This document shows positions 4,076-36,998 of a stretch of 51,683 nucleotides of DNA, in pieces. The notes under the pieces are model-generated. The model saw only the letters and a list, made by a program, of their open reading frames with translations. It was not told the DNA's origin and searched no databases. The stretch spans positions 1 through 51,683 of the forward strand of contig DATBSM010000029.1 in the NCBI GenBank assembly GCA_036559785.1, given 5' to 3'. Both the position numbers and the translations under genes were made by a program. The stretch comes from Gemmatimonadales bacterium. GTDB taxonomy: Bacteria > Gemmatimonadota > Gemmatimonadetes > Gemmatimonadales > GWC2-71-9. Every line of letters begins with the position of its first letter. Position 1 is the first letter of the stretch.

Positions 4076-5379
4076 GGTGACAGCCTTTCGGAACGATACA
4101 GGTCCTCGACTGTTTCCCGGGGTCTCGCCACCCACCACTTTCCAGCATCCACGATGACCTCCGGCGGCCGCGGGCGGCTGTTGTAGTTGGAGGCCATGAC
4201 GAAGCCGTAGGCGCCCGCGCCCAGAATCGCCAGCGCGTCGCCCGCCTCGAGCCCGGGAAGGGTTCGGTCGAGCGCCAGGAAGTCGCCGGTCTCGCACACC
4301 GGCCCGACGACGTCCACCCGGGCAGAGGGCCGCTCCTGCTCCACCAGCTCCACGATCTCGTGGTATGCCTGGTAGTGGCTGGGCCGGACGAGGTCGTTCA
4401 TGCCGGCATCCACGACTACAAACTCTTTTCCACCCGAGTGCTTGCGATAGAGCACCCGAGTGAGGAGCACACCGGCGCTGCCCACAAGAAATCGACCCGG
4501 CTCCAGGTAGATCGTGAGGCCGGTAGGGGCGAGCAGCGGCACCACCGCTTTGGCAAACTCGGTCGGATCCACTGGCCGCTCATCGGAATAGCGGATGCCG
4601 AGACCACCGCCGACATCGAGGACGCGGAGAGTGCCGACACCGGCTCGTCGCAATTTCTCGACCAGATCGATCAGGCGGCCGATTCCCTGGCGGAATGGCT
4701 CCGCGTCGAAGAGTTGGCTACCCAGGTGCATGGCCAGCGTGGTGAGCTCCAGCCGCGGATGGGCGAGGATATACTCGGCGGCCGGGAGGACCTGATCGGT
4801 GGGCACACCGAACTTGATTCCGCTCTTGCCGGTGGAGATGTAGGGGTGGGTCTCGGTGGTGACATCGGGATTGACCCGGACGCCTACTCGGACCTGAGCC
4901 TCCTCCGCGTCGGCAACACGGCCAACCAGCTCCAGCTCTTCCCGGGACTCGACGTTGAGGTGCCCCACCCCAGTGCGAATGGCGGAGCGAAGCTCCTCAG
5001 CGGTCTTCCCCACCCCACTGAAGACGATCTGCTCGGGGGCGAACCCTGCCGCCAGTGCGCGTGCCAGCTCACCGGAGGAGACGATGTCCGCCCCCGCACC
5101 CAGCTCTCTCAGGAGCCGGAGGATCGCGAGGTTGCTGTTGGCCTTGACGGCAAAGCAGATCCGATGCGGCAGCGATCCCAGGGCCGCATCCAGCGAGCGA
5201 TAGCGGCCGCGGATCGCCTCGGCGTTGTAGACGTAGGCCGGTGTACCAACCTGCTTCCCTATCTCAGTGAGCGACACATCGCCCAAATAAAGCGCGTCGC
5301 CTCGCCGAGCCAGTCCAGCATCCGCAAACAGGAGTTCCGTCGGCGAGACTGTCCCGCTGTCCCGCTGCCCCGCTGCCAC
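4072..5379 (-). CDS. lysA: diaminopimelate decarboxylase
   Basis: [24 protein letters not shown] (PLP Lys), GGGLGI, and CETGD near the C-terminus. The GTG at 5379-5377 lies 2 nt after the proS stop. The ORF-track start at 5433 would overlap proS. Confidence 0.93.
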
Positions 5380-5382
5380 GCC
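5351..5382. repeat. Four tandem 8-mers (GTCCCGCT GTCCCGCT GCCCCGCT GCCACGCC) at the proS stop / lysA start junction
   Basis: Read directly from the sequence. Bases 5361-5376 (cccgctgccccgctgc) are identical to 29121-29136 in the rpsI-rpsB spacer. Confidence 0.85.
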
Positions 5383-6830
5383 TAGTACGCCTTCGCCCAC
5401 ACGGCCTCGACCACGCTGGGCTGGCCGCACCACATGCAGTGGGTCGGCGCCACGGGTGAACGGAATTCCGGGTCGGGCAGGACCCGAATCGTGGCCTTGG
5501 TTTTTTCTTTAATCTCCATTTCACAAACGCCCCGGCCACAGAAACCGCCGTAGACGAAGCCACCCTCGTTCTCCATCCTGGCGATGAACTGATCCTTGGT
5601 GGCTCCCCGCAGACTCGCTGCCTCGCGTCGGGCGAGCGCCGCGGCCAGCAGATCCGCCTGAAACTGGTCTATGACGGCAGTAAGCCTGGCCGGAAGCCCG
5701 TCCATCGGCAGAGGCTCCTTCTTGCCGCCGGTGCGCCGGGCCAGCATGACCGACTTCGAGGCTACATCGCGCGGCCCCACCTCCAGGCGGAGGGGGACGC
5801 CGCGGCCCTCCCACTCGTAATATTTTGCGCCCGGCTTGATTCCCTCGCGGGAATCCACGTGCACCCGTATTCCGACTGCCGCCAGCTGTTGGCGCACCCG
5901 TTGCGACGCCTCGAGCACGGTGGAGCGTTCCTCGTCGTTCTTGTAAATCGGAACGATCACCACCTGGTACTGGGCCAGCCTCGGCGGACACACCAACCCG
6001 AGATCATCGCTGTGGGTCATGATCAGCGCGCCCACCAACCTGGTGGAGACGCCCCATGAGGTGTTCCACACGTGGTCCAGTCCTCCGGCCGCGGTCTGGA
6101 AGGTCACCTCGAACGCCCGGGCAAAGTTCTGGCCAAGATTGTGACTGGTACCGGCTTGCAGGGCCTTGTTGTCCTGCATCAACGCTTCGCAGCTGTAGGT
6201 CCGAAGCGCACCGGCGAATCGCTCGCTGTCGGTCTTGAGCCCGGTGAGCACCGGCATCGCCATCCACTCTTCCATAAACGTCCGGTAGACCCCGAGCATC
6301 CGCCGCGCCTCCTCCTCCGCCTCGGCCTCAGTGGCGTGGGCGGTATGTCCCTCCTGCCAGAGGAATTCGGTAGTGCGCAGGAAGAGTCGGGTACGCATCT
6401 CCCAGCGGACCACATTGGCCCACTGGTTGATCAGGAGCGGAAGATCCCGGTAGCTCTGGATCCACTTGGCATACATCGCGTATATGATCGTCTCGGAGGT
6501 CGGCCGGATGATCAGCGGCTCCTCCAGCTCCTTGCCGCCGCCGTGGGTCACCACGGCCACCTCGGGGGCAAACCCTTCGACGTGCTCCGCCTCTCGCGCC
6601 ATGAAGCTTTGCGGGATGAAGAGCGGGAAATAGGCGTTCTGGTGTCCGGTGTCCTTGAACATCTGGTCCAGGGCGCGCTGCATCTGCTCCCAGATGGCAT
6701 AGCCGTTGGGCCGGATGACCATGCACCCCCGGACCGGGCTGTAGTCGGCGAGCTCGGCCCGGGCGATGATCTCGTTGTACCACGCGCTGAAGTCGGCGGC
6801 GCGGGTGGTGAGTGCCTTGGTATCAGCCAT
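5382..6830 (-). CDS. proS: prolyl-tRNA synthetase (archaeal/eukaryote-like architecture, no INS domain)
   Basis: 482 aa. FSAWYNEIIARAELADYSPVRGCMVIRPNGYAIWE, class II motifs, and a C-terminal Cys cluster ending ...WAKAY. Confidence 0.97.
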   Translation of the reverse strand: MADTKALTTRAADFSAWYNEIIARAELADYSPVRGCMVIRPNGYAIWEQMQRALDQMFKDTGHQNAYFPLFIPQSFMAREAEHVEGFAPEVAVVTHGGGKELEEPLIIRPTSETIIYAMYAKWIQSYRDLPLLINQWANVVRWEMRTRLFLRTTEFLWQEGHTAHATEAEAEEEARRMLGVYRTFMEEWMAMPVLTGLKTDSERFAGALRTYSCEALMQDNKALQAGTSHNLGQNFARAFEVTFQTAAGGLDHVWNTSWGVSTRLVGALIMTHSDDLGLVCPPRLAQYQVVIVPIYKNDEERSTVLEASQRVRQQLAAVGIRVHVDSREGIKPGAKYYEWEGRGVPLRLEVGPRDVASKSVMLARRTGGKKEPLPMDGLPARLTAVIDQFQADLLAAALARREAASLRGATKDQFIARMENEGGFVYGGFCGRGVCEMEIKEKTKATIRVLPDPEFRSPVAPTHCMWCGQPSVVEAVWAKAY

Positions 6831-8115
6831 TGATGCGGGCCTTGATGGTGTTCACGACCGATTGCAAAGAGACCGACTCCTGAGACCCGCTGCGTAAGTC
6901 CTTAACCATGATTTGGTCACGCTTCCGTTCGTCCGGCCCGACCACCACCGCGAGGCGTGCGTTCCGCGAGTCGGCCAGCTTAAGCTGCTTGCCCACGACC
7001 TGGGAGCTCAAGGCGTACTCGACCCTGAGGCCGGCGTCCCGAAGCTGGTGGGCCAGGGCCAAGACATGCGGCAGGTCTTCTTGAGTAATGAAGGCTAGAA
7101 ACACGTCGATACTGGAGGTCTCGGCCGGAAGCAGGCCCCTGTCCTTGAGCAGCTCACCCAGTACCACGTCACCCATACCAAATCCGACCGCGGGCATCTG
7201 AACGCCACCGAGCGCGTCGAGCAGGTTATCGTAGCGTCCGCCACCGCAGATGGCACGCAGGGTACGTCCCGCGTCGAACAGCTCGAAGACGATTCCGGTG
7301 TAGTAGGCCAGCCCTCGGACGATCGTGAGGTCAATCTCGATGAAATCGCCCAGACCCATCGCCACTAGAGCTTGATAGGCTTCGCGCAAGGGATCAGCCA
7401 CCTTGGACAGCTCGCCGAGCTCCTTGTCTAGCTGGTCCCACCCTCGAATTTGTGAAACCTCCCAGAGGTCTTCGATAGTGGCTGGCGCAAAAACTTCCGG
7501 TTTGAAGTCGTATTTATCGAGCTGGGCTTTTCGTACGCGTTCGACCTTGTCAATGTACTCGAACGCCTTTCCCATTCCCGACGCCGGCACGCCTCGACCC
7601 TCGAGGATCGACGTCAGCACCCGCCGGTCGGAGAGTCTGACCCTCACGTCGTTGGGCCCCAAGCCAAACGCCCGCATCACGTCGATCGCGAGTGCAATGA
7701 TCTCGGCGTCGGCGAGGGGACCCGGCTCCCCGATCAAGTCGCAGTTGAGCTGGAAGTGCTCTCGAAGCCTCCCCCGTTGCTGCCGCTCGTAGCGAAACAG
7801 CTGAGGGATGGAGAACCATCGGATAGGCTTCCGGAGCTGGCCGGCCTGGGCCGCTACCATGCGGGCGAGCGTCGGCGTCATCTCCGGCCGGAGCGCCACC
7901 GGGCGATCCCCCTTATCGGTGAAGTTATACAACTGACCGACGATCTCGTCCCCACTCTTGGCGGTGTAGAGATCCAGCGGCTCCAGCGGAGGTCCGTCGT
8001 ACTCCTCGAACCCATATCGGGTGGCCACCGTACGCCAGGTTCGGAAAATGTGGGCACGGAGGGCGAGATCGGCGGGGTAAAAATCACGAAAGCCCGGCAG
8101 GGCCTTGGTTTTCAT
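6823..8115 (-). CDS. hisS: histidyl-tRNA synthetase
   Basis: 430 aa. ALPGFRDFYPADLALR, LRPEMTPTLARMV, RYERQQRGRLREHFQLN, GGGRYDNL. Overlaps the proS start by 8 nt. Confidence 0.97.
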   Translation of the reverse strand: MKTKALPGFRDFYPADLALRAHIFRTWRTVATRYGFEEYDGPPLEPLDLYTAKSGDEIVGQLYNFTDKGDRPVALRPEMTPTLARMVAAQAGQLRKPIRWFSIPQLFRYERQQRGRLREHFQLNCDLIGEPGPLADAEIIALAIDVMRAFGLGPNDVRVRLSDRRVLTSILEGRGVPASGMGKAFEYIDKVERVRKAQLDKYDFKPEVFAPATIEDLWEVSQIRGWDQLDKELGELSKVADPLREAYQALVAMGLGDFIEIDLTIVRGLAYYTGIVFELFDAGRTLRAICGGGRYDNLLDALGGVQMPAVGFGMGDVVLGELLKDRGLLPAETSSIDVFLAFITQEDLPHVLALAHQLRDAGLRVEYALSSQVVGKQLKLADSRNARLAVVVGPDERKRDQIMVKDLRSGSQESVSLQSVVNTIKARING

Positions 8116-8154: not shown

Positions 8155-9405
8155 TTACACCTCCATCCCCAGCACAGACATGACGTCTCCCACCGTATGG
8201 AAGGACCCGGTGACGAGCACCGTCCCTGCGCCTTTCTGTACTTTATCGATCGCCTCGGTGAACTCTGGAATCAGCGTCCATTCCGCGTGCGCGGGCGGCC
8301 GCTTTGGGTCCTTGAGCCAGCGGCGGAGCCACTCGATGTCCCAGCCCCGTCCGGCCGCCGTGGGGGCGATCGTCAACACGCCACGATCGATCACCTGGTC
8401 CAGCTGCACCAGCATCTCGGGCCACTCCTTGTCGCCCAGAATCGATACCAGCGCATGTAGAGGCCGCTTCGGCTGGGTGGAACCCAGCGCTCTCACCAGC
8501 GACCGCATCCCATCCGGGTTGTGCGCCACGTCGAAGAGCCAGCGGCCTCTCTGGTCGAGCCGCCCGGCGACCCGGGCCAGGCCGAAGGCCCGCTCGATCT
8601 GGGCCGCCGTGGGCCGGTAGGGCACGGGCAAAGCCATCAGAATGCCATGGGCCACCGCCGCGTTGCGCCGCTGATGCGGCCCCACCAGGCTGAGCGGGCC
8701 ACGCCACTCGTAGTCCGGTGGCAGCACCCGGATGTCCGCTGCGGCCCGCCCGTCCGCCCGTCCGCCCGTTCGCCGGACCGCACGTCTGGCCTCGCGGCGC
8801 AGGACCCCCACCAGCTCAGGGTCGGTCTCGCCGATCACGAACGGCACGCCGGCCTTGGCAATACCGGCTTTCTCGCAGGCGATCAGCTCCAGGGTGTCAC
8901 CCAGATACTTCATGTGATCCCGCGCGATCTTGGTCACCCCGCTCGCCAGGGGCCGCACCACATTGGTGCTGTCGAGGCGCCCACCCAGCCCCACCTCCAC
9001 CACCGCCACCTCTACGCCCCGGGCGGCAAAATCGGCGAACGCGAGCGCGGTCGTGGCCTCGAAAAAGGTCGCCTTGTGCTCCAGGATGGTCGAAAGAACC
9101 AGGGAGGTCCACATCGCCACCGCTTCTTCAGAGATGGGCACACCGTCCACCTGAATGCGCTCGCGGAACGAGATCAGATGGGGTGAGGTGTACAGCCCCA
9201 CCCGCCAGCCGGCCTCTCTGAGCGCCGCCGCCACCAGGGTCGAGACGCTTCCCTTGCCGTTGGTGCCGCCGATATGCACCGATGGCATGACCTCGTGCGG
9301 GTTGCCGAGGGTCTTGAGCAGCGCACGCGTCGTCGTCAGCCCGAACTTGATCGTCGTAGTCCGGGGGAAGAGGAACTCCAACGACTGGGCGTAGGTCAGC
9401 GACAT
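8155..9405 (-). CDS. folC: bifunctional folylpolyglutamate synthase / dihydrofolate synthase
   Basis: P-loop HIGGTNGKGSVS, a Mur-ligase fold, and LVTGSFHTVGDV at the C-terminus. accD-folC adjacency as in E. coli. ATG at 9405, with a TTG at 9408 also possible. Confidence 0.92.
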   Translation of the reverse strand: MSLTYAQSLEFLFPRTTTIKFGLTTTRALLKTLGNPHEVMPSVHIGGTNGKGSVSTLVAAALREAGWRVGLYTSPHLISFRERIQVDGVPISEEAVAMWTSLVLSTILEHKATFFEATTALAFADFAARGVEVAVVEVGLGGRLDSTNVVRPLASGVTKIARDHMKYLGDTLELIACEKAGIAKAGVPFVIGETDPELVGVLRREARRAVRRTGGRADGRAAADIRVLPPDYEWRGPLSLVGPHQRRNAAVAHGILMALPVPYRPTAAQIERAFGLARVAGRLDQRGRWLFDVAHNPDGMRSLVRALGSTQPKRPLHALVSILGDKEWPEMLVQLDQVIDRGVLTIAPTAAGRGWDIEWLRRWLKDPKRPPAHAEWTLIPEFTEAIDKVQKGAGTVLVTGSFHTVGDVMSVLGMEV

Positions 9406-10479: not shown

Positions 10480-11721
10480 TCAGTTATCAAGATAGCCAGA
10501 TGACCTCGAGTCATATGCGACCCTCAGGGCCACTCCGAGACACAACGAACAGATGATGAAAAAGGAGCCACCATAAGAAAAAAGCGGGAGTGGAATGCCG
10601 GTGATGGGCATGAGGTTCACCGTCATACCGACGTTCTCGAACACGTGGGTGAAGAACAGACCGATGATCCCGAAGACGGCGAGACTGCTGAACGGATCGG
10701 TTGCCCGCCGTGCGATGCGAAGCAGAACCAGGAAAAGCGTCAGAAAGAGTCCCAGCGCCACCGCCACCCCAAGAAAGCCGAGCTCCTCGCCAACCACCGA
10801 GAATACAAAGTCGGTATGCTGCTCCGGCAGAAAGGCCAGGCGCTTCTGCGGACCCTCGGTGTAGCCGGTGCCAAACCAGCCGCCGGATCCGATCGCTACC
10901 CGGGATTGAATGGCATGGTAGCCTGCGGCCCGCGGATCGGCCTCGGGATTGAGGAAGGTGAGCAGCCGGTTCTGCTGGTATGGGGCCAACCGCGTCCACA
11001 GCGGCATGGCAATGGCACCCATGGCCACGTTCGCCACCAGGAACGTCGTCCAATCCCACACATACGGCCGCCACGCCATGAGGATCAACACGAATATGAT
11101 GATCCACGCACTCCAGGCCAGCGTATTGAACGCCAGGAACAGGCTGATCCCCGGAGTCGCCATCAAGAATAGCATCCGGGGGCGAACGCCAGACCAGAAC
11201 AGCATGGCGAAGAAGACCCCCACAAAGACGAGGGCGCTGCCAAGATCGGGTTGCTTGAGAACCATGAGGAACGGCACACCCACGATCAGGGCAGGGCCGA
11301 CCAGGTCCCAGAGGGAGCGGGGAGCTTCTTTGCGGCCGGAGAGAAACCTGGCCAGCATGAGCACCGTCGCCACCTTGGCCAGCTCGGAGGGCTGGCCGAT
11401 CTGATGTCCGCCGATGGAGAGCCAGCTGTGGCTGCTTTCGGCGGTTCCGGCACCGGTGCCCACCACCAGCACCACGCCCAGCAGCAGGATGCTGAAGGCG
11501 TACAGCGCGGGGGCTATCCACTCAAGGACCCGGAGCGAAATGTTGTAGACCACCCAGCAGGTTACGATCCCCACTCCAAACCAGACGATCTGGCGTTCCC
11601 ACATGCCCGCGGCCCGGGTGGGCACGTCGGTCTGGCCAGCCGAATAGAGCGTGGCCAGGCCAAACGACATGAGGGCGAGGGTGACCAGGACCAGGTTGCG
11701 GTCGACTGCAGGGCCTCTCAC
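10480..11721 (-). CDS. rodA: rod shape-determining SEDS glycosyltransferase RodA
   Basis: 413 aa polytopic FtsW/RodA/SpoVE family (LPEQHTDFVFSVVGEELGF, PITGIPLPLFSYGGS). The GTG start overlaps the mrdA stop (GTGA). Confidence 0.93.
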   Translation of the reverse strand: MRGPAVDRNLVLVTLALMSFGLATLYSAGQTDVPTRAAGMWERQIVWFGVGIVTCWVVYNISLRVLEWIAPALYAFSILLLGVVLVVGTGAGTAESSHSWLSIGGHQIGQPSELAKVATVLMLARFLSGRKEAPRSLWDLVGPALIVGVPFLMVLKQPDLGSALVFVGVFFAMLFWSGVRPRMLFLMATPGISLFLAFNTLAWSAWIIIFVLILMAWRPYVWDWTTFLVANVAMGAIAMPLWTRLAPYQQNRLLTFLNPEADPRAAGYHAIQSRVAIGSGGWFGTGYTEGPQKRLAFLPEQHTDFVFSVVGEELGFLGVAVALGLFLTLFLVLLRIARRATDPFSSLAVFGIIGLFFTHVFENVGMTVNLMPITGIPLPLFSYGGSFFIICSLCLGVALRVAYDSRSSGYLDN

Positions 11722-17845: not shown

Positions 17846-17886
17846 GGACTCCTCTTGAGTGACGGCTTCGGTTAAAAAGCGTGGCC

Positions 17887-17979
17887 GGTGAGCGGTAAGC
17901 GGTGAGCGGGTGCGCAAGAGACCAGGGTAACGTTACGGAGTATCCGCCAGCATTCCCCGCTTACCGCTCACCGCTTACC
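17887..17979. repeat. Inverted repeat whose arms are tandem heptamer arrays (GGTGAGC GGTAAGC GGTGAGC ... GCTTACC GCTCACC GCTTACC)
   Basis: Left arm 17887-17907, right arm 17959-17979. 18/21 complementary in register, or 14/14 perfect in either of two 7-nt-slipped registers. A5 at 17874-17878 and T5 at 17981-17985 flank it. The right arm contains the M16 peptidase stop (17968-17970). Confidence 0.85.
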
Positions 17980-19233
17980 GTTTTTCGGCCCCAAACGTAC
18001 AACGGTTTGCCTTTCAGGGGCGAAGAACTCCCCGGCGACAGCAGCGACCTCCTCGGAAGTCACGGCATCGATCTCGCGCAGCATCTCATCCAGCGGCCGG
18101 TAACGGTCATCGTGCAGGATGAAGCCCGCCAGCCGGCCCATGCGAGCGGCCGGGCTTTCCAAAGAGAGCATCACCTGGCCCTTGAGCTGCTGCTTGCCGT
18201 TGACCAGCTCGGTCATCGGTAGTCCTTCCCGCGCCAGGCGGGCATACTCCCCACGGATCGCCTCTGCCGCTTGGTCGGCTGTCGCCGGCTGGGTACCGAC
18301 GTAGACACCCAGCTGCCCCGAGCCCTGGTAGAAGTGCTTGTAGGCGAAGATGGCATAGGCGAGCCCCAGCTCCTCCCGGACCCGCTGGAAGAGGCGGCTG
18401 GACATGCCGCCGCCAAAGGCATTCGTCAGGATGGCCAGCGGGAAGCGCCGCGGATCGCGCAGCGGGAAGGTGTCCGTGCCGAACACGATATGGGTCTGCG
18501 CGGTGTCCCGTTCCTCGGCGCGGCTGGCACCCTGAACGGCAGGAGCCGGGGTAACGGCCTCACGAGGGGGCTCGGGAGCAGTGCCCTCGAACCACCCTTC
18601 CCGCTCCAAAGCGGTGAGCAGCTGATCGTGGTCAACGTGTCCCGCCGCGGCGATCACGCAGTTCCCCCGGTAATAGCCGTTTCGGTGCAGGACCTTCAGA
18701 TCCTCGGCCGAGAGGGCGGCAAGCGATTCCGGGGTGCCGAGAATGGAGTACCCGTACGGATGCTCCGGCCAGAGCGTCTCCGCGTGCATCTCGAACACGA
18801 GGTCGTCCGGCGTGTCGGCGACCCCGCTGATCTCCTCCAGAATCACATTACGCTCGGGCTCCAGGTCGCTGGCGCGCAGAAGGGGCCAACGCACCAGGTC
18901 GGTGAGGATTTCGACCGCCAGCGGCAGATCGGCGTCGAGCACATGAGCTTGATAGCTGGTGTAGTCGCGTCCGGTAAAGGCATCCAGTCCCCCGCCCCGG
19001 ATCTCCAGCCCTAGCGCGAGCTCCTGGGCGGTCCGGCGTTCGGTGCCCTTGAAAACCATGTGCTCGAGCAGATGAGAGATTCCCAACTGGCGGCGCGGCT
19101 CATGGGCGGAGGCGGTGCGGACGTAAATACCAACTGCCACCGAACGGACCCCTGGTAACGTCTCGCTGAGAACGACCAGTCCGTTCGGCGCAGTGGTGCG
19201 GCGCAACCCTTCGTCGAGTTCAACCGTTTCCAC
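17968..19233 (-). CDS. M16-family zinc metallopeptidase (insulinase/pitrilysin-like)
   Basis: 421 aa. Inverted zinc motif HLLEHMVFKGT and an M16 N+C domain layout, located downstream of pnp. Confidence 0.9.
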   Translation of the reverse strand: METVELDEGLRRTTAPNGLVVLSETLPGVRSVAVGIYVRTASAHEPRRQLGISHLLEHMVFKGTERRTAQELALGLEIRGGGLDAFTGRDYTSYQAHVLDADLPLAVEILTDLVRWPLLRASDLEPERNVILEEISGVADTPDDLVFEMHAETLWPEHPYGYSILGTPESLAALSAEDLKVLHRNGYYRGNCVIAAAGHVDHDQLLTALEREGWFEGTAPEPPREAVTPAPAVQGASRAEERDTAQTHIVFGTDTFPLRDPRRFPLAILTNAFGGGMSSRLFQRVREELGLAYAIFAYKHFYQGSGQLGVYVGTQPATADQAAEAIRGEYARLAREGLPMTELVNGKQQLKGQVMLSLESPAARMGRLAGFILHDDRYRPLDEMLREIDAVTSEEVAAVAGEFFAPERQTVVRLGPKNGKR

Positions 19234-19239: not shown

Positions 19240-21330
19240 CTATTCCCTGGGCAGGAGCGCCTTCCGGGAGAGCTTCATCCGGCCACGATCGTCCACTTCG
19301 AGCAGCTTGACCTGGACGATGTCGCCCTTCTTGACCACGTCTTCGGTCTTTTCGGTTCGGCCATGCTGCAGCTCACTGATGTGGAGCAGCCCTTCGACGC
19401 CGGGCATGATCTCTACGAAAGCGCCGAAGGCGGTGGTGCTCTTGACCGGCCCTTCGTAGGTCCGGCCCACTTCGGGCTCGGTGGTGATGGCGGCGACCAT
19501 GGCTCGCGCCTTCTCGCCGGCCTCTCCCCCGACCGCGGAGATCGTCACGACGCCGGTATCCTCGATGCTGATCTTGGCGCCGGTGGCGTCCTGGATGCCC
19601 CGGATGGTCTTGCCCTTCGGCCCGATGACGTCGCCGATCTTGTCCGGCTTGATCTGCATCGTGAAGATGCGGGGCGCGTACGGCGACAGCTCGGTGCGAG
19701 GCGCCGGCAACGCCTTGGCCATTTCCTTGAGGATGTGCAGCCGGCCCTTCCGGGCTCGTTCCAGCGCCTGCTCCATGATCTTGAGCTCGAGGCCCATGAT
19801 CTTGATGTCCATCTGGATCGAGGTGATGCCCTTCTCGGTCCCAGCCACCTTGAAGTCCATGTCGCCGAGGTGGTCCTCAGAGCCGAGAATGTCGGTGAGG
19901 ATCGCCACCTTGTCGCCTTCCTTGATCAGGCCCATGGCGACACCGGCGCAGGCGGCCTTCATCGGTACGCCCGCATCCATCAGGGCGAGCGAGCCGCCGC
20001 AGACCGTGGCCATCGAGGACGAGCCGTTGGACTCCAAAATCTCGGAGACGATGCGCAGCGTGTAGGGGAACTCCTCGTAATGTGGCAGGAGCGGCTGCAG
20101 CGCCCGCTCGGCCAGGGCACCGTGGCCGATCTCCCGGCGGCTGGTGCCACGCATCATCTTGACCTCGCCGGTGGCATATGGCGGGAAGTTGTAATGCAGC
20201 ATGAACGATTTGGTCGTCTCCCCCGCCACGTCGATGCTGTCGATCCGCTGCTCATCATCTGCGGTCCCGAGGGTGGCCGAAACCAGCGCTTGGGTCTGGC
20301 CGCGGGTAAACAGCGCCGACCCATGGGTGCGGGGCAGTACCCCGGTCTCGATCGAGATTGGCCGGATGGTATCGAGATCGCGCCCATCGACCCGCTCGGA
20401 GCGCTCCAAGACCTGCTTTCGCATGACCCGGTACTCGATTTCCTCCAACTCCTCGTTGATATCGCGTCCCCGGTCGGCGTGTTCCAGCAGTAAGCTCTGA
20501 AGAATCTGCTCCTTGAGCGCCTTTACGCTGGACGAGCGACCCGCCTTGTCCTTGGCGTTGATCGCCTGGGCCATGGCCCCCTCGGCCAGTTGACGCACCT
20601 TGGCAAGCAGCGCGGCATCTGGGGCGGCCTTGGTCCACTTGATCTTCTGCACCGCTCCAGCCTTGTCGATCAGCTGCTTCTGCAGCCCGAGCAGCTCGCG
20701 AATGCCCTTCTGGGCCACCTTCAGCGCCTCGATGATCTCGGCTTCGGAGATCTCGAGCGAGCCGCCCTCGACCATGACGATCGAGTCTGCCGATCCACTA
20801 ACCACCAGATCCACGCTGGAGAACTCGAGCTGCTGGAATGTCGGGTTCAGAATCCAGTTCCCTTCCATCCGGCCGACGCGCACCGCCGCCAGCGGGCCAC
20901 TCCACGGCACCGTCGACAGCCCCAGCGCGGTGGCAGCAGCGGTCACGCCGAGCACGTCGGCGTCGTTCTCCTGGTCCGCCGACAGCACGGTGACGAATAC
21001 CTGGACTTCGTTCTTGAACCCCTCCGGAAAGAGCGGCCGGATCGACCGGTCAATCAACCGGCTGGCCAGGATCTCCTTGTCCGATGGGCGTCCCTCGCGC
21101 TTCAGAAACCCCCCGGGAATCTTCCCGGCGGCGTAGGTCTTCTCGCGATATTCGACGGTGAGGGGAAAGAACGGCAGGGTGGAAACGTTCTGGGAGACGG
21201 TCACGGCGGCGAGTACTACGGAGTCGCCAAAGCGAACGACGACGGAGCCGGCGGCTTGCCTGGCCATGCGGCCGGTCTCGAGGACCAGCGGACGTCCGGC
21301 AAACTCGGTTTCAATCTTCTGTGCGGTCAC
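19240..21330 (-). CDS. pnp: polyribonucleotide nucleotidyltransferase (PNPase)
   Basis: Two RNase PH domains, KH (IGDVIGPKGKTIRGIQ) and S1 (GRTYEGPVKSTTAFGAFVEI). GTG at 21330, preceded by GAGAGAGAG. The ORF-track TTG at 21369 abuts the leader hairpin. Confidence 0.97.
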   Translation of the reverse strand: MTAQKIETEFAGRPLVLETGRMARQAAGSVVVRFGDSVVLAAVTVSQNVSTLPFFPLTVEYREKTYAAGKIPGGFLKREGRPSDKEILASRLIDRSIRPLFPEGFKNEVQVFVTVLSADQENDADVLGVTAAATALGLSTVPWSGPLAAVRVGRMEGNWILNPTFQQLEFSSVDLVVSGSADSIVMVEGGSLEISEAEIIEALKVAQKGIRELLGLQKQLIDKAGAVQKIKWTKAAPDAALLAKVRQLAEGAMAQAINAKDKAGRSSSVKALKEQILQSLLLEHADRGRDINEELEEIEYRVMRKQVLERSERVDGRDLDTIRPISIETGVLPRTHGSALFTRGQTQALVSATLGTADDEQRIDSIDVAGETTKSFMLHYNFPPYATGEVKMMRGTSRREIGHGALAERALQPLLPHYEEFPYTLRIVSEILESNGSSSMATVCGGSLALMDAGVPMKAACAGVAMGLIKEGDKVAILTDILGSEDHLGDMDFKVAGTEKGITSIQMDIKIMGLELKIMEQALERARKGRLHILKEMAKALPAPRTELSPYAPRIFTMQIKPDKIGDVIGPKGKTIRGIQDATGAKISIEDTGVVTISAVGGEAGEKARAMVAAITTEPEVGRTYEGPVKSTTAFGAFVEIMPGVEGLLHISELQHGRTEKTEDVVKKGDIVQVKLLEVDDRGRMKLSRKALLPRE

Positions 21331-21369: not shown

Positions 21370-21448
21370 GTCTAGGGTCTAGAGTCGAGGATCAAGGTCT
21401 CGTGGAGAGTCACCGTCAGTGGTAGACCCTCGACCCTAGACCCTTGAC
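21370..21448. repeat. Inverted repeat with heptamer-array arms (GTCTAGG GTCTAGA GTCGAGG ATCAAGG ... GGTAGAC CCTCGAC CCTAGAC CCTTGAC) in the rpsO-pnp spacer
   Basis: Left arm 21370-21397, right arm 21421-21448. The three outer unit pairs give 19/21 complementary positions. The element ends 40 nt upstream of the pnp GTG. Confidence 0.85.
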
Positions 21449-21453
21449 CCCGT

Positions 21454-21491
21454 AAAGCAGAAAGGGCGCCCCGAAAGTGGATCAGGACGCC
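21454..21491 (-). terminator. Candidate intrinsic terminator of rpsO
   Basis: On the minus RNA, GGCGUCC (21491-21485) pairs with GGGCGCC (21471-21465) for 7 bp including one G-U, with a 13-nt loop. It is followed directly by CUUUCUGCUUU (21464-21454) and starts 20 nt after the rpsO stop. Confidence 0.5.
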
Positions 21492-21510
21492 CCTGGTCGG
21501 CGCGCGGCGG

Positions 21511-28926: not shown

Positions 28927-29052
28927 GCGCTAGTTGATGTCCCGTCCGATTTGGGGTTGTGCGTCCACCGCCTTCATCTCCACGCTGCGATCCATTCCCT
29001 CGCGGTGCTCGGGGTCAGGACACCCACAGCAGGATCCGGCGATGTGCGAAGT

Positions 29053-29150
29053 CAGCGGGGCCGCAGGCAGCAGGGCAGTTTGTTCCGGCGGCTGGACACC
29101 ATCAGGTGTGCTTTGACCGCCCCGCTGCCCCGCTGCTACCTGCCCCGCCG
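29053..29150. repeat. Inverted repeat with roughly 8-mer-array arms (CAGCGGGG CCGCAGG CAGCAGGG CAG ... CCGCCCCG CTGCCCCG CTGCTACC TGCCCCG) in the rpsI-rpsB spacer
   Basis: The left arm (29053-29078) aligns colinearly with the reverse complement of 29122-29150 at about 22 paired positions with two small bulges. CAGCGGGGC also has two exact 9-nt complements (29119-29127 and 29127-29135). The element begins 6 nt after the rpsI stop. Confidence 0.8.
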
Positions 29151-29155
29151 TGAAA

Positions 29156-29560
29156 CTACCGCTTGCTGAACTGGAACCGCTTCCGTGCACCCGGCCGGCC
29201 CGGCTTCTTCCGCTCGACCGCACGGGGATCACGAGTCATGAGACCCGCCGCCCGCAGCTTCAGCCGGTGCTGGGGATCGGCCTCGACCAAAGCCCTGGCG
29301 ATGGCGTGCCGCATGGCTCCGGCCTGGCCCGCCTGACCGCCACCCGCCACGTGCGCCTTCACATCGAACGCGCCCAGTGTGTCGGTGGCGGTAAACGACT
29401 GCTGAATGTGCTGCACCAGGGAGGGTCTTGGGAAATAGTCACCGAGAGTCCGCCCGTTGATGTCCCACTTGCCGGTGCCGGGGGTCAGATATACCCGGGC
29501 GACGCTCGTCTTGCGCCGGCCCACCGCCTGCCACCGGAACTGAGGTACTACTGCGGTCAT
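29156..29560 (-). CDS. rpsI: 30S ribosomal protein S9
   Basis: 134 aa. GRRKTSVARVYL, GGGQAGQAGAMRHAIARAL, RDPRAVERKKPGRPGARKRFQFSKR. Confidence 0.97.
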   Translation of the reverse strand: MTAVVPQFRWQAVGRRKTSVARVYLTPGTGKWDINGRTLGDYFPRPSLVQHIQQSFTATDTLGAFDVKAHVAGGGQAGQAGAMRHAIARALVEADPQHRLKLRAAGLMTRDPRAVERKKPGRPGARKRFQFSKR

Positions 29561-30009: not shown

Positions 30010-30085
30010 GTCTTCTGCTACCTTAGGCTTTGGACCGGGCCAAACCGAAACAGACTCACAAGATAGTGGATTCAGTGGGGTTAGG

Positions 30086-31821: not shown

Positions 31822-33311
31822 CTGATCCCTTCAGTTCGGGCCTGCCTGGCCCACTCGCTCGGCGCCCCCGTTTCCGCCGTGGCGGGCGGACGCCGGGCAT
31901 GGCGAGCATGGTCTTCGGCCAGAGCCGCGGCCACGGCGAGATCGAGGATGCGGCCGGGATCGACGCTCTGGGCAAGCAGATCGGTCCGTCGCTCCAGAAA
32001 CTGGATGTCAATCTCGCCTTTCCGGAACGCCGGGTCCGCCATGAGTCGGCGATGAAATGCCTGGTTGGTGGCAACTCCGGCCACCACCAGCTCGTCCAGC
32101 GCCTGCGTCATGCGGGTGATCGCCTGTGCGCGGTCGGGGGCCCACACAATCAGCTTGGCGAGCAGTGAGTCATAGTAAAGCGTGACCTCGTCTCCGGTCT
32201 CCACGCCGGCGTCCCATCGGACGCCGGGGCCGGCGGGCGCCCTCAGATACTCGATGCGGCCGGTGGAGGGCAGGAAGCCATTGGCGGGGTCTTCACTGGT
32301 GATGCGGCACTCCAGCGCCCAGCCCCGCGGATTGAGCCAGCCGGGGTGGACCCGCATGGGGAGACCGCCGGCAATGCGGAGCTGCTCCCGCACGAGATCC
32401 ACGGCGTAGACCAGCTCGGTCACCGGATGCTCCACCTGGATCCGGGTGTTCATCTCCAGGAAGTGGAACGATCCATCTCCGGTAAGGAGAAACTCGCACG
32501 TCCCCGCGCCACGGTAACCGACTGCCTGGGCCGCCGAGACCGCGGCGGCGCCCATTCGCTCGCGAAGGTCCGCCGACACGGCGACCGAAGGCGCCTCCTC
32601 GACCAGCTTCTGGTGGCGCCGCTGGATCGAGCACTCCCGCTCCCCCAGATGTACGGTACGCTTGTCGTCGGCCAGCACCTGGATCTCGATATGGCGGGGC
32701 TGCACGATGAACTTTTCCAGATACACCGTGGGATCACCGAATGACTTGAGCGCTTCCGAAGCCGAGGCTTCCAGGGCTGCGGCCAAAGCCTTCGGATCAT
32801 GCACGACCCGCATTCCCTTGCCGCCGCCACCAGCAGCCGCCTTTACCATCACCGGATACCCGATCTCGGCTGCGGCCACCCCCGCGGCTGCCGGATCGTC
32901 TACCGGCGCACTCCCTCCCGGAACGATCGGCACCCCGGCCTCCTGCATCCGCCGGCGAGCCTCGGTCTTGTCACCCATGGCTCGGATGGCCGCCGGAGGC
33001 GGGCCGACAAAGATGAGCCCTGCCTGCTCGACCGCCTCGGCGAATGCGGCTCGCTCCGCCAGGAACCCGTACCCGGGATGGACCGCGTCGGCACCCGACT
33101 CACGCGCCGCTGCGATCAAACGCTCGATCGAGAGATAGCTCTCGGACGGCCGCGCAGGGCCGATTGCGATTGCCCGGTCCGCCGCGCGCACATGCGGACT
33201 CCGCCGGTCGACGGCGGAGTAGACGGCAACCGCCTCAAGCCCTTCCTCGTGACATGCGCGGATAATGCGGAGAGCGATCTCGCCGCGGTTGGCGATCAGG
33301 ACACGCTTCAT
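31818..33311 (-). CDS. accC: biotin carboxylase subunit (acetyl/propionyl-CoA carboxylase)
   Basis: MKRVLIANRGEIALRIIRACHE, ATP-grasp motif YPVMVKAAAGGGGKGMRVV, EMNTRIQVEHPVTE. 497 aa, with no fused BCCP domain. Confidence 0.95.
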   Translation of the reverse strand: MKRVLIANRGEIALRIIRACHEEGLEAVAVYSAVDRRSPHVRAADRAIAIGPARPSESYLSIERLIAAARESGADAVHPGYGFLAERAAFAEAVEQAGLIFVGPPPAAIRAMGDKTEARRRMQEAGVPIVPGGSAPVDDPAAAGVAAAEIGYPVMVKAAAGGGGKGMRVVHDPKALAAALEASASEALKSFGDPTVYLEKFIVQPRHIEIQVLADDKRTVHLGERECSIQRRHQKLVEEAPSVAVSADLRERMGAAAVSAAQAVGYRGAGTCEFLLTGDGSFHFLEMNTRIQVEHPVTELVYAVDLVREQLRIAGGLPMRVHPGWLNPRGWALECRITSEDPANGFLPSTGRIEYLRAPAGPGVRWDAGVETGDEVTLYYDSLLAKLIVWAPDRAQAITRMTQALDELVVAGVATNQAFHRRLMADPAFRKGEIDIQFLERRTDLLAQSVDPGRILDLAVAAALAEDHARHARRPPATAETGAPSEWARQARTEGIR

Positions 33312-33315
33312 AGGA

Positions 33316-33457
33316 GGGGAAAGATTGGGAAGGAAGGGAAAGACGGGAAGGTCTGGCGGACGCGGAGACAGAATGGTCGGTCAGGTGCTCGAAAGGGAGC
33401 TACGCAGATCACCCCCTCCCGTCATTCCGGTCATTCCCGTCCTTCCCCACTTTCCCG
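33316..33457. repeat. Inverted repeat with 9-mer-array arms (GGGGAAAGA tTGGGAAGGA AGGGAAAGA CGGGAAGGT ... TCATTCCGG TCATTCCCG TCCTTCCCC ACTTTCCCG) filling the spacer upstream of accC
   Basis: Left arm 33316-33352, right arm 33422-33457. About 28/36 positions are complementary colinearly. The right arm abuts the stop (33458) of the upstream gene and the left arm ends 4 nt from the accC ATG (33311). Confidence 0.8.
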
Positions 33458-34486
33458 TCATGGCCTACAGGCTGCCGGCGGCGTGTCTCCAAAAACCGGG
33501 AGGAAGCTGCTGCAGAGGAGCCCGTTGTAGCGTGCGGCGCTGTCGTACACCCCGCGGACCTCGGCGACCCACACCGATCCACCCTGGCGGGTGGCGGCAA
33601 GGAGCTCGGTCAGCGAGAGCGCTTCTGGACCGGGCGGCACCGGACCGCTCACCCTGGCCAGCCGGGACACCGTCCAGGTGAGGGCGGGCGCGGCCGCGCT
33701 GTCAGCTGTGGGCGACAGGCAGAGCGGCCGGCGAGCCGCTACGCTGGCGAGCGCATTCCGGATCGGCAGGGCTGGATCGGTCTCCATGGCCTCGGCCATC
33801 CGGCGGCGATACAGGGAGTCGGTCGCGTATCGCGCTGGGCGGAGCGAAAGGACCCTCCGGGCCAGCAGATCTCCATGATCGTACCAGACCGAAAGCGCCT
33901 CGAGATCGGTTCCCACCAGGAGCACGCCACCGACTGGGCAGGAAGCCAAGAGGTTGGCACCAAGCTCGAGGATAAAGGGCGGCAGCGGCGGGGCGTGCGA
34001 CGCAGCTCGGATCAGGCCAGCGGCGTTCGACCCGGAGTCTTCGAGCAGGACGACTGCGCGCTCCAGCTCGGCCAGACCGCGATAGACCACGCCGGAGTCC
34101 ACCGAGAGCCGAACAGCCTGGTCGAATGCCGTCGCCGCGAAATCCAAATAGAGAAGGCCATCGGGATCTCCCCGGTGGCCCTGGAGGTGCCAGTCACGTG
34201 CATCGAGAAGGTAGAACCGGCCGAGCTGAAACCAGGCGCGTCCGTCGTCGGGCGCGGTGGCGAGGTAGCGGCCGAGCAAGCCAATGGCCATCCGCCGCTC
34301 TCCGGCCCGCTCGAGGGCCGCGGCCCGCGGCGCCACGTTGGGGTCGACCGCTGCCTGTCCGCGGATCTCCCCGGTCACCGCCGCGGATGCGATGGCCAGC
34401 GCCGCCACGCCTTTGCATGAGAGGCGAAGCACCGGGTTAGCTCGGGGTGTCAGCCATGGGAGACGGGCCTGAAACATGTGTGACAA
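33458..34486 (-). CDS. hypothetical exported protein with a TPR-like N-terminal region
   Basis: 342-aa ORF between the carboxyltransferase and accC. It has a hydrophobic segment (VAALAIASAAVTG) and a helical-repeat-like stretch (GRAWFQLGRFYLLDARDW). I recognise no family. The start is the TTG at 34486 or the ATG at 34477. Confidence 0.6.
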   Translation of the reverse strand: MSHMFQARLPWLTPRANPVLRLSCKGVAALAIASAAVTGEIRGQAAVDPNVAPRAAALERAGERRMAIGLLGRYLATAPDDGRAWFQLGRFYLLDARDWHLQGHRGDPDGLLYLDFAATAFDQAVRLSVDSGVVYRGLAELERAVVLLEDSGSNAAGLIRAASHAPPLPPFILELGANLLASCPVGGVLLVGTDLEALSVWYDHGDLLARRVLSLRPARYATDSLYRRRMAEAMETDPALPIRNALASVAARRPLCLSPTADSAAAPALTWTVSRLARVSGPVPPGPEALSLTELLAATRQGGSVWVAEVRGVYDSAARYNGLLCSSFLPVFGDTPPAACRP

Positions 34487-36096: not shown

Positions 36097-36131
36097 GGGT
36101 GGTCAATATAATGAGAGCCGTACGACCCTGG

Positions 36132-36857: not shown

Positions 36858-36938
36858 GGCGACGAACAGAAGCCCTGCAAGCGCGAGTGCAAGGAACGTG
36901 AAACTCAGATCTCACCTCCCCAGGTACCGCAGGAATGA

Positions 36939-36976
36939 GAAAGGGCGGGAGAATCTTCCGATCCCTCCGCCCTTTC
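36939..36976 (-). terminator. Candidate intrinsic terminator of rpsA
   Basis: GAAAGGGCGGGAG (36939-36951) pairs with CTCCGCCCTTTC (36965-36976) for 12 bp plus a 1-nt bulge, with a 13-nt loop. The minus RNA reads ...CUCCCGCCCUUUC-UCAUUCC. Confidence 0.5.
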
Positions 36977-36998
36977 CGTGTGCTCCGTCCTCTCCGTC
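36954..36998 (-). repeat. Five phased tandem 9-mers immediately after the rpsA stop (minus strand: GACGGAGAG GACGGAGCA CACGGAAAG GGCGGAGGG ATCGGAAGA)
   Basis: Read directly. On the plus strand, TCCG occupies positions 4-7 of every 9-nt unit. The last units form the 5' arm of the terminator hairpin. Confidence 0.8.

Follow-up and report, generated by a model that had tools for sequence, protein, structure and literature searches.

Spacers between co-directional minus-strand housekeeping genes in a 51,683-nucleotide stretch of Gemmatimonadales DNA, referred to here as the window, contain hairpins whose arms are short tandem arrays of 7-, 8- or 9-nt units. This periodic-arm architecture is confirmed as real and non-random. 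We give about an even chance to the view that these elements are inverted pairs of simple sequence repeats built by slippage, with arms kept alike by exchange, and that they are the mRNA counterparts of rRNA intervening sequences. The six sites in the window are as follows:

17886-17980, minus strand: E1, periodic-arm hairpin in the pepM16-ald spacer, with arms 17886-17910 and 17956-17980 made of 7-nt units GGTRAGC / GCTYACC, 3.4 copies per arm
21370-21448, minus strand: E2, periodic-arm hairpin in the pnp leader
29053-29150, minus strand: E3, weaker, indel-ridden periodic hairpin at the end of rplM-rpsI
33316-33457, minus strand: E4, periodic-arm hairpin with 9-nt GGGAARGAC-like units
5349-5381, minus strand: one-sided 8-mer array, sense CAGCGGGR x4, immediately past the proS stop codon (5382-5384)
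36939-37000, minus strand: 9-mer array (36965-37000, sense AGGACGGAG-like) with an ordinary hairpin (36939-36976)

The arms of E1 comprise 3.4 copies of the variants GGTGAGC/GGTAAGC and their reverse complement; they are 25 nt long, 88% complementary, and separated by a 45-nt loop. The pepM16 stop codon (17968-17970) lies inside the sense 5′ arm, and the stem is placed between flanking A5 and T5 tracts (17874-17985). E2 is located between the rpsO terminator (21462-21494) and the start of pnp, most likely a GTG codon at 21330, and has 7-nt units (GTCNAGG / CCTNGAC) in arms of 21-24 nt that are 88-90% complementary around a loop of 31-37 nt. E3 begins 5-8 nt past the rpsI stop codon (29156-29158) and is followed directly by the conserved rpsB leader (28927-29050); its CAGCGGGG-like units of 8 nt alternate with 7-nt variants, and although its longest ungapped arm is 12 nt, RNA folding nonetheless predicts a 36-pair hairpin in the transcript. 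E4 occupies the entire spacer from the stop codon of a TPR gene (33458-33460) to the ATG of a biotin carboxylase gene (33309-33311), with arms (33318-33359 and 33415-33456) of 23-42 nt, 74-87% complementarity, and a loop of 55-75 nt. The 36965-37000 array starts at the rpsA stop codon (36999-37001), and its last two 9-mer units form the 5′ arm of the short-looped hairpin at 36939-36976. An 8-mer array is also present inside a coding linker (8746-8786).

Several measures distinguish these elements from chance. A periodic-arm detector finds three loci in the window, whereas 60 dinucleotide-preserving shuffles of it average 0.033 and never exceed one. E1, E2 and E4 are picked up by both TRF and an inverted-repeat finder, ranking among the longest inverted repeats of the window with the latter; for E3, TRF detects the right-hand array alone. 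The periodic inverted repeats described previously are clear at three spacers and weaker at the fourth. Folding z-scores are −5.06 for E1 (minimum free energy −60.7 kcal/mol), −6.40 for E2, −3.64 for E3, −3.52 for E4, and −3.08 for 36939-37000. The 5349-5381 array has no complementary arm and no structure (z = +1.24); of the two sites thought to be array-only, one is indeed one-sided and the other has an array that enters an ordinary hairpin. All six sites are intergenic, in six of the 15 spacers that are 40 nt or longer in the interval 124-38807, of which about 5.7% is intergenic. Their placement after the stop codons of co-directional minus-strand genes, as originally reported, is borne out by measured distances of 0-10 nt at five sites and 62 nt at rpsO-pnp, where the element comes after the rpsO terminator. 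Applied to 1.45 Mb from several phyla, the same detector finds 29 such loci, with a period of 7 in 19.

Two claims of the preliminary description hold in part. The units were said to be unrelated between loci, apart from one pair. At least four families are present among the six sites, and many more elsewhere, but the CAGCGGGR unit is common to the 5349-5381 array and E3, and a GACGG core is shared by the units at 33316 and 36965. The helices were also expected to form in several slipped registers. Such registers are predicted within 3 kcal/mol for E1 (±7) and E4 (±9, about three), and none within 5 kcal/mol for E2 or E3, so that the expectation holds for two of the four hairpins. Unit families of the window also reappear at non-orthologous spacers in relatives, as for CAGCGGGR, CGGGAAGGA and AGGACGGAG: the CAGCGGGR family is present at L090:9100-9126, the E4 family builds a hairpin upstream of rpsO in the same genome, and the 18-mer CTCCGTCCTCTCCGTCCT is common to the 36939-37000 site and the dut-mreB hairpin of L001. 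Purely local growth does not account for this recurrence.

The elements change far faster than their flanking genes while staying at their spacers. In close relatives an element is kept at the same spacer with its unit number, its unit sequence, or the whole element altered; some close relatives, like more distant species, have no element at these spacers, so no essential role is implied. Every close relative has a GGTRARC-type variant between pepM16 and ald. Between rpsO and pnp, relatives with identical RpsO and nearly identical flanks carry a GGTCNAG-type, a GAGTCGG/CTCCTGA-type, or a complex element – other unit families thus take the place of E2, which is missing in more distant species – and the GAGTCGG/CTCCTGA-type element has four units in one of the genomes L089 and L094 and seven in the other. 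The rpsI-rpsB spacer is found full, internally deleted (by 78 nt in L092/L094), with different 8-mers, or empty (L090), and L001 and L006 have other periodic hairpins there. In contig L101, which is 99.7% identical to the window, E3 is replaced by a compact hairpin, CAGCGGGG-CAGCGG-CCCCGCTG, with an 8-bp stem and a 6-nt loop. Most of nine other Gemmatimonadota rpsI-rpsB loci have a periodic or ordinary hairpin just past the stop codon; among these nine, L014 has none and L003 no clear one.

The elements had been suggested to be products of slippage that are then selected for pairing, and these two halves fare differently. The slippage step is shown by the differences in unit number and unit order between close relatives, including the four versus seven units in L089 and L094 and the compact version in L101. 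For pairing, compensatory changes are seen at 0 of 28 pairs in the single family that could be aligned, the sense strand gives the more stable RNA in only five of 18 cases, and G.U pairs (52 in sense, 67 in antisense) give no sense-strand advantage. Because there is neither covariation nor a sense-strand G.U bias, nothing here shows selection on RNA structure. Moreover, the alignment of L089 and L102 shows inversion of a whole element between the two genomes, with 517 nt aligning at 87% identity in reverse orientation between flanks that align forward. The flipped element, the lack of compensatory changes, and the lack of strand bias all argue for exchange between arms.

In relatives and in soil metagenomes, the architecture very often encloses a small gene for an ‘rRNA intervening-sequence protein’ (PF05635; S23p/Avd-like), as at L089:1075-1572. 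Periodic arms bracket 32 of 53 metagenomic PF05635 loci and two of 1500 control segments, a roughly 450-fold difference; the TCAGCCR family of bracketing arms has the opposite polarity, and the overall split is 14 to 16. No rRNA is present in the 20 PF05635 loci tested, and tblastn finds no homolog of the L089 protein in the window, whose copies are versions with no gene in the loop. The tie between gene-less and gene-carrying hairpins rests on their shared architecture, unit families and spacer in relatives rather than on direct descent. Intervening sequences encoding S23p have terminal inverted repeats that form a stem of about 28 bp with a long loop, like the window hairpins. In Coxiella burnetii, RNase III cuts the 28-bp stem of the 23S intervening sequence, which also has three or four tandem heptamers in strain-dependent number (Warrier et al. 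2016, PMC4990558); these lie in the 5′ stem region, and the window elements likewise vary. Intervening sequences differ in being located in helix 25 or 45 of 23S rRNA rather than in mRNA spacers. The S23p-family gene that such a stem encloses in relatives of the window is absent from the window copies, and RNase III cutting, demonstrated for Coxiella, may extend to them by analogy.

The architecture is not undescribed, because the same anatomy is known from Xanthomonas and Geobacter metallireducens. Xanthomonas genomes contain 70-75 convergent pairs of GGGAATC arrays each, in which a plus-strand (GGGAATC)4 array is followed 21-67 nt on by a minus-strand array; the pairs lie 3-30 nt past the upstream gene, for example in the groES-groEL, atpA-atpG and atpD-atpC operons, and the average gap is 28 nt on the side of the upstream gene and 160 nt on that of the downstream gene (Rehm et al. 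2015, PMC4692102). As in the window, these pairs are convergent with the G-rich arm 5′, mostly with four heptamers per array; 89-93% are intergenic, usually with co-directional housekeeping genes on either side and seldom with divergent ones, and they vary in length and sequence between related species. However, one unit dominates the Xanthomonas genome and is read as a G-quadruplex motif, whereas the window has at least four families of 7, 8 and 9 nt in 51 kb, most unable to form G3 quadruplexes. The Geobacter class 1-3 sites are paired 7-9-nt arrays on opposite strands, with class 3 pairs 75-115 nt apart and of the same polarity as in Xanthomonas (Aklujkar et al. 2009, PMC2700814). These ‘putative global regulator binding sites’ resemble the window elements in having 3-5 tandem units per site, variable spacing and several families per genome. 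Matches are seen between their class 2 unit TCTCCGTS[Y] and CTCCGTCCT, the unit at 36965-37000, and between their class 3 unit MTYCTGA and the CTCCTGA arm of L089 and L094. The study that reported them, which made no strain comparison, treated them as multicopy BLAST families and took them for IHF/HU binding sites.

Other repeats are less similar. The cyanobacterial STRR/TAACTGA arrays are tandem heptamers, mostly intergenic and variable in copy number, like 5349-5381 and 36965-37000, but they almost never pair as inverted copies, and TAACTGA sets are found immediately ahead of start codons rather than just after stop codons (MacGregor 2015, PMC4679880). The initial exclusion of REP/BIME, ERIC, MITE and CRISPR stands, and the elements have no match in Rfam. 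REP-type elements, for which mRNA 3′-end protection is among the proposed roles, are also intergenic hairpins that follow stop codons, where the neighbouring genes are co-directional or convergent, and in REPINs a spacer of about 70 nt separates two inverted copies. However, REP units are single imperfect palindromes of conserved sequence, with hundreds of copies tied to a RAYT transposase, whereas the window elements have tandem-array arms and locus-specific sequences, with no RAYT gene seen. In Drosophila Foldback transposons, the long inverted terminal repeats consist of short tandem repeats and in some cases enclose a gene. These are mobile eukaryotic elements of kilobase size that have target-site duplications, whereas the window elements show no evidence of transposition.

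The window hairpins, the Xanthomonas GGGAATC pairs, the Geobacter class 1-3 sites, and the S23p/PF05635 stems are best read as one class. A 7-9-nt seed at or just past a stop codon would be multiplied by replication slippage, and the arms would be kept alike by inter-arm recombination or template switching – a putative mechanism – rather than by selection on single pairs. The elements would be transcribed within operon mRNAs, fold into long-looped stems with about 20-35 predicted pairs, and would most likely act as intercistronic cleavage (RNase III-type) or 3′-end hairpins. The analogy is with rRNA intervening sequences and their RNase III-cut stems, and the presence of some hairpin after rpsI in most relatives examined also suggests such a role. 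Against it, canonical terminator features are absent, the loops being too long and a T tract present in E1 only. Alternatively within this same explanation, the elements may be close to neutral passengers.

It is possible, if on the unlikely side, that the elements lack any role at the RNA level and are selfish or neutral DNA: slippage-prone arrays grow where tolerated, after stop codons and away from promoters, arm recombination keeps the palindrome, and RNA cleavage is incidental. The differences in presence and form between the window and its 99.7%-identical counterpart and among genus-level relatives would fit, as would the lack of compensatory changes and strand bias, the array within the coding linker, and the heptamer simple-sequence-repeat excess known from the literature as a genome property. 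However, most Gemmatimonadota loci examined retain some hairpin past the rpsI stop codon, the 0-10 nt placement is strikingly regular here, with a position close behind the upstream gene in Xanthomonas too, and the roughly 450-fold bracketing of PF05635 genes points to some organised relationship.

Unlikely, too, is that these are transcription terminators, attenuators, or REP-type barriers to 3′ exonucleases, with periodicity as a mere trace of growth. E3 and the 36939-36976 hairpin do lie at expected operon ends, after rplM-rpsI and after rpsA, with a promoter-like site upstream of rplM; A5 and T5 tracts flank E1; and ordinary hairpins, including the compact one in L101, take the same position in relatives. 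Yet a consensus terminator scan flags none of the elements (at E2 it flags the rpsO terminator only), the loops are 31-75 nt long, and E2 is inside the pnp leader, downstream of a proper terminator. E4 ends 4 nt ahead of the next start codon, and full termination would therefore silence the downstream gene.

Protein-binding arrays in DNA or RNA, one unit being one site for IHF/HU, an unknown regulator, or a pentameric S23p/Avd-like protein, would accommodate the 3-5 units per arm (Xanthomonas favours four), the location of PF05635 genes between such arrays, and the insertion sequences at a fixed distance from some Geobacter sites (PMC2700814). The solved homolog 2GSC, an entry with five chains, is described as a homopentamer, and its gene, XCC0516, adjoins a GGGAATC array. 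This reading is nonetheless doubtful, with at least four unit families in the window, too many for one sequence-specific protein, and no PF05635 gene there by tblastn. G-quadruplex regulatory repeats, as proposed for Xanthomonas and Nostoc heptamers, are very improbable despite at least four G3-4 runs on the G-rich strand of E4 and the 5349 array, a G-rich 5′ arm in 25 of 25 period-7-to-9 loci of the pnp set, and the in vitro G4 formation reported for (GGGAATC)n, given that E1 and E2 units have GG runs only, many families (e.g. GCGAGAA, ATTGAMG, TCAGCCR) lack G runs, the complementary arm competes for pairing, and bracketing arms are of mixed polarity.

The periodic-arm hairpins represent a little-studied but known class of element, for which the turnover in relatives, the lack of compensatory changes and of a sense-strand G.U bias, the link to PF05635, and the inversion are new. 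By analogy with rRNA intervening sequences, it is plausible that they serve as mRNA processing determinants.

The genes of the window lie almost all on the minus strand, are housekeeping genes, and keep a conserved order; they include proS, hisS, mreB, dut, ald, peptidase M16, pnp, rpsO, rseP, tsf, rpsB, rpsI, rplM, a biotin-carrier gene, biotin carboxylase, carboxyltransferase, and rpsA. Among species-representative genomes the closest PNPase relative is 85% identical, and contigs 99.7-99.9% identical to the window are present in three JGI metagenomes. The material analyzed comprises 51 kb of the source genome and approximately 1.6 Mb of related loci, with the gene maps of the older loci drawn from ORFs. 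Intergenic sequence makes up about 5.7% of positions 124-38807. Of the 15 spacers in this region that measure 40 nt or more, six – all flanked by minus-strand genes on both sides – contain short tandem arrays. These are readable directly in the raw sequence, and TRF reports them as follows.

5349-5381, between minus-strand genes: period-8 array behind proS, one-sided
17886-17909 and 17957-17980, between minus-strand genes: period-7 arrays of the pepM16-ald hairpin (E1)
21423-21450, between minus-strand genes: period-7 array of the rpsO-pnp hairpin (E2)
29119-29148, between minus-strand genes: period-8 array of the rpsI-rpsB hairpin (E3)
33317-33349 and 33417-33461, between minus-strand genes: period-9 arrays of the hairpin between a TPR gene and biotin carboxylase (E4)
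36965-37000, between minus-strand genes: period-9 array behind rpsA

The distances to stop codons in the preliminary description are correct, with five of the sites 0-10 nt behind the upstream stop. Four unit families (GGTRAGC, GTCNAGG, CAGCGGGG, and GGGAARGAC) are distributed over the six sites, and G3 tracts occur in only some of the units. Pairing TRF arrays by consensus unit proved too strict, recovering one of four hairpins, and was replaced by an inverted-repeat and arm-periodicity detector requiring arms of at least 16 nt, complementarity of at least 75%, a loop no longer than 160 nt, and periodicity in both arms. It finds three loci in the window, whereas 60 dinucleotide-preserving shuffles average 0.033 and never contain more than one, so that the recurrence noted in the preliminary description exceeds chance. 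The clear inverted array pairs are E1, E2, and E4, and the inverted repeats at 33318/33415, 17874/17954, and 21370/21425 rank among the longest in the window. E3 (29053-29150) is weaker, mixing 7- and 8-nt units and failing an ungapped test, where its best arm reaches only 12 nt; a 36-pair hairpin is nonetheless predicted for its transcript.

Loops of the window hairpins span 31-75 nt. The minus-strand transcripts are predicted to fold more stably than expected, with z-scores of -5.1 (E1), -6.4 (E2), -3.6 (E3), and -3.5 (E4), as the proposed hairpins require. With inner loop helices counted, the predicted structures have between 35 and about 49 base pairs, and the arm-to-arm stems contain 13-25 pairs in one register. 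The further proposal that periodic arms permit pairing in slipped registers holds in part: alternatives within 3 kcal/mol are predicted for E1 (±7) and E4 (±9), and not for E2 or E3. The array at 5349-5381 has neither partner array nor structure, and the final units of that at 36965-37000 serve as the 5′ arm in an ordinary hairpin with a short loop.

Two of the hairpins lie near gene starts. The biotin carboxylase ATG is at 33309-33311, and the CCCCUCCU preceding it on the mRNA is the terminal part of the C-rich arm of E4; no Shine-Dalgarno-like sequence lies ahead of this ATG (33309-33320), so the ribosome-binding region would sit inside the E4 stem. The long pnp ORF begins at a TTG (21369) adjoining E2, and relatives and gene calls indicate the GTG at 21330, preceded by GAGAGAGAG, as the true start (696 aa). 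An 8-mer array (sense GACGGGCG, five copies) at 8746-8786 falls inside a folC-like Mur-ligase gene, where it separates the middle domain from the C-terminal one, and arrays of this kind are thus not strictly intergenic.

Several described classes of element do not account for these hairpins. REP, BIME, and REPIN elements are conserved imperfect palindromes of 20-40 nt that occur in many copies and are associated with a RAYT gene, whereas the arms here are tandem arrays with locus-specific sequences, and no RAYT gene was noticed in the 51 kb; CRISPR arrays have 24-48-nt repeats with unique spacers, whereas these units are 7-9 nt, head-to-tail, and spacer-free. MITE-type transposition is rejected because the unit family of each spacer is constant across species and loci with the same unit have no common loop sequence. 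The CAGCGGGR loci (5349, 29053, and position 9100 of comparison locus L090) do not have adjoining sequence in common, and the E2 flanks, the only ones read for target-site duplication, contain no direct duplication. Integron attC sites are likewise rejected, as the flanking genes are core housekeeping genes with conserved synteny. A scan for canonical intrinsic terminators (GC-rich stem, 3-8-nt loop, and T tract) flags the rpsO terminator and none of the elements, with a T5 tract at E1 only. Consistent with the initial failure to recognize a known family, Rfam gives no match at the gathering score and only chance-level matches at E≤1. A tRNA-like fold called by ARAGORN at 10997-11071, with a 4-base anticodon and within an FtsW/RodA-family gene, is most likely a false positive.

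The architecture does have precedents. Rehm et al. (2015) described 186 and 183 GGGAATC arrays in two Xanthomonas genomes, including 70-75 convergent inverted pairs per genome, and did not find a function (PMC4692102). These arrays are 89-93% intergenic, mostly between co-directional neighbors, differ between the two species, and are separated on average by 28 nt from the gene upstream and by 160 nt from that downstream (PMC4692102). Pairs are tabulated as plus-strand (GGGAATC)4 followed 21-67 nt on by a minus-strand array, with examples at groES-groEL, atpA-atpG, atpD-atpC, and gltB-gltD (PMC4692102). The window pairs have the same anatomy – a tandem array and a convergent reverse-complement array, intergenic and close behind the upstream gene – but in Xanthomonas a single family with a G3 tract (GGGAATC/GGGANTN) is used genome-wide, whereas several families stand side by side in the window. 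Three classes of opposite-strand paired sites, each with 3-5 tandem units of 7-9 nt, were reported in Geobacter metallireducens by Aklujkar et al. (2009; PMC2700814), with units GTTGCTYN, TCTCCGTS[Y], and MTYCTGA and a proposed role in IHF/HU binding (PMC2700814). Their anatomy and polarity are those of the window pairs; the class 2 unit fits only that at 36965-37000 in the window (CTCCGTCCT), and the class 3 unit fits the CTCCTGA arm of close relatives (L089 and L094) and not the window. The architecture is therefore of a known but obscure kind.

It also occurs beyond the window. Applied to 1.45 Mb of pnp-centered loci, the same detector reports 29 instances, with period 7 the commonest, in Gemmatimonadota, Nitrospinota, Geobacteraceae, Acidobacteriota, and other groups. 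The 18-mer CTCCGTCCTCTCCGTCCT, common to the window and relative L001, has eight viral-contig matches, all of them coding peptide repeats, and scans with 9-mer units are consequently noisy. The G-rich arm is the 5′ arm in all 25 period-7-to-9 loci of the pnp set and in all window hairpins, a property that is identical whichever strand is read and that the Xanthomonas pairs also obey; ordinary inverted repeats divide 115:119. As a universal rule it fails in the TCAGCCR family described below, with an overall split of 14:16, and is a family-specific property.

Orthologous spacers, proposed as a test in the preliminary description, were compared in ten relatives obtained by an exact RpsO protein look-up (87-92% nucleotide identity, together with the same strain): flanks are nearly identical, the elements differ, and unit number is polymorphic. 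The rpsO-pnp spacer contains a GGTCNAG-type element whose units are reordered and carry substitutions, a GAGTCGG/CTCCTGA-type element in which one arm has four or seven units, or a complex element of greater length; the rpsO-pnp element was not found in more distant Gemmatimonadota. The rpsI-rpsB spacer is empty or has the full hairpin, a version that has lost 78 nt internally between short direct repeats, or a hairpin built from different 8-mers around a loop of 10 nt. In L101, a contig that matches the window at 99.7% identity over 5.4 kb, E3 is replaced by the compact hairpin CAGCGGGG-CAGCGG-CCCCGCTG. At pepM16-ald every close relative has a GGTRARC/GYTYACC variant, with differing unit counts. 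Most of nine other Gemmatimonadota read have some hairpin directly behind the rpsI stop; L001 (CAGGCGAG) and L006 (CGTACGT) have periodic hairpins with other units, three (L005, L017, L018) have ordinary ones, L014 has none, and L003 has no clear one. L001 also has a periodic hairpin in the dut-mreB spacer, where the window has none. Elements thus keep their spacers, turn over far faster than their surroundings, and are polymorphic in unit number. The pepM16-ald spacer of L001 (13415-13582; an 85%-identity relative) contains a perfect 31-bp non-periodic hairpin adjoining a single GCTCACC unit, the unit that is amplified in the window.

Some periodic arms enclose a gene. At 1075-1572 of L089, inverted 9-mer arrays (GACGGCGAG, five copies, and its complement) lie 420 nt apart around an ORF of 121-127 aa that matches PF05635, the 23S rRNA intervening-sequence protein family (E 3e-27), and TIGR02436; its sole PDB match is 2GSC, Xanthomonas XCC0516 (E 8.5e-19). 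PF05635 proteins resemble the Avd protein of diversity-generating retroelements (PMC10053308). The same bracketed gene is present in the biotin-carrier-rplM spacer of L102 (1366-1900) and L103; this spacer is only 76 nt in the window (30010-30085), where tblastn finds no PF05635 homolog. It is 383 nt in L094 (802-1184), without arrays, and seems prone to insertions of various kinds. XCC0516 likewise directly follows a biotin-carrier gene, bccP, and Xanthomonas GGGAATC repeat #15 lies 6 nt behind bccP and overlaps the XCC0516 start; the published table has no array for this gene other than the one on the bccP side (PMC4692102).

A metagenome scan with the L089 protein yielded 80 loci (L102-L181), 53 of them non-duplicate with sufficient flank. 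Periodic-arm inverted arrays bracket the PF05635 gene in 32 of these, with periods of 7 (24 loci), 9 (four), 10 (two), and 8 (two); 16 have some other inverted repeat, and five have none. Among 1500 random control segments, periodic arms occur in two and any inverted repeat in 142. The heptamer family TCAGCCR recurs in roughly 15-20 PF05635 loci. Ten loci read whole (for example L126, L174, and L162) show arrays typically running from or just behind the upstream stop codon to shortly before the next start, and rRNA was found in none of 20 tested.

The 23S intervening sequence of Coxiella has a 28-bp terminal stem cut by RNase III, an S23p ORF in its loop, and three to four tandem GACAGAT heptamers in strain-variable number (PMC4990558). 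The window hairpins likewise have terminal inverted repeats around a long loop, and their predicted structures, inner loop helices included, exceed the 20 bp expected of such a stem. However, intervening sequences sit in helix 25 or 45 of 23S rRNA and contain an S23p ORF, whereas the window elements lie between protein-coding genes, have no ORF in their loops, and occur in a stretch without rRNA. A literature search found no paper joining the repeat pairs, PF05635 genes, and intervening sequences.

How the arms remain complementary is informed by three comparisons. Compensatory double changes are absent from all 28 pairs of the only alignable family (four sequences), in which several pairs are broken; and, in the 18 elements whose orientation is known, only five have the more stable RNA on the sense strand, and G.U pairs are not commoner on the sense strand (52 vs 67 antisense). 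The lack of compensatory changes and of G.U bias leaves no signature of selection on RNA structure, and arm symmetry points to a process acting on DNA. Elements of the biotin-carrier-rplM spacer in L089 and in L102/L103 are 87% identical over 517 nt in opposite orientation, with flanks aligning forward; this is direct evidence of arm-to-arm exchange, as recombination between inverted arms yields such flips. Its non-crossover outcome would keep both arms alike.

Two further loci were noted. Ahead of rpsB, a stretch of 120 nt (28927-29050, and its counterpart in L001-L018 and L089-L101) is strongly conserved across Gemmatimonadota (e.g. CGCCGGATCCTGCTGTGGGTGTCC ... GAAGGCGGTGGACGCACAACCC), has no Rfam match, and may be an undescribed rpsB leader. 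In L090 (9100-9915) and L093, rseP and rpsO are separated by an inserted 190-aa ORF that lies on the opposite strand and has no Pfam or NCBIfam match. One of its flanks has a GTCATCCTGAGCGAATGCGAAGGATC motif and, at the rseP stop, a one-sided array of GCGGGRCA; the other has a separate periodic hairpin with CGGGAAGGA units.

The class identity of the elements and their mode of evolution – slippage, arm-to-arm exchange, and fast turnover at a fixed spacer – rest on direct comparisons. As to function, we favor intercistronic cleavage or 3′-end hairpins, with the elements otherwise probably nearly neutral: they would be transcribed within operons, with stems presumably long enough for RNase III, the gene-carrying counterparts are built like the intervening sequences that RNase III excises, and behind rpsI periodic elements take the place of ordinary hairpins. 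One rival explanation is that they are pure selfish or neutral DNA, and others that they act as plain terminators or exonuclease barriers, or as arrays for protein binding. The weakest rival, that the repeats form G-quadruplexes, has against it that many units lack G runs and that one large family has the opposite polarity.

A broader reading, which we regard as possible but doubtful, is that the hairpins are gene-less 'intervening-sequence cassettes' of a widespread unrecognized family in mRNA spacers and rRNA. The full cassette would run from a stop codon through a tandem array, an S23p/Avd-like gene, and the inverted array to the next start codon; the pentameric S23p protein would bind the units repeated in its own stem, RNase III would excise the cassette from the operon transcript, and array-to-array recombination would flip the cassette and keep its arms alike.

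Because the elements differ even in a 99.7%-identical contig, they are natural markers for high-resolution typing. Metagenome assemblies also break at such elements: a Gemmatimonadaceae contig (L015:1-112) starts with 14 perfect copies of the 8-mer TCCACCGT, and tandem arrays like this one appear to interrupt assembly from short reads. The inverted heptamer pairs of Xanthomonas and Geobacter have been catalogued for more than a decade with their function still missing, and the S23p/PF05635 proteins – relatives of Avd – and rRNA intervening sequences are long-standing orphans too. The cassette reading, if true, would explain the orphan S23p/PF05635 family together with the repeats of Xanthomonas and Geobacter, and if all are one phenomenon, three open puzzles would become a single testable question.
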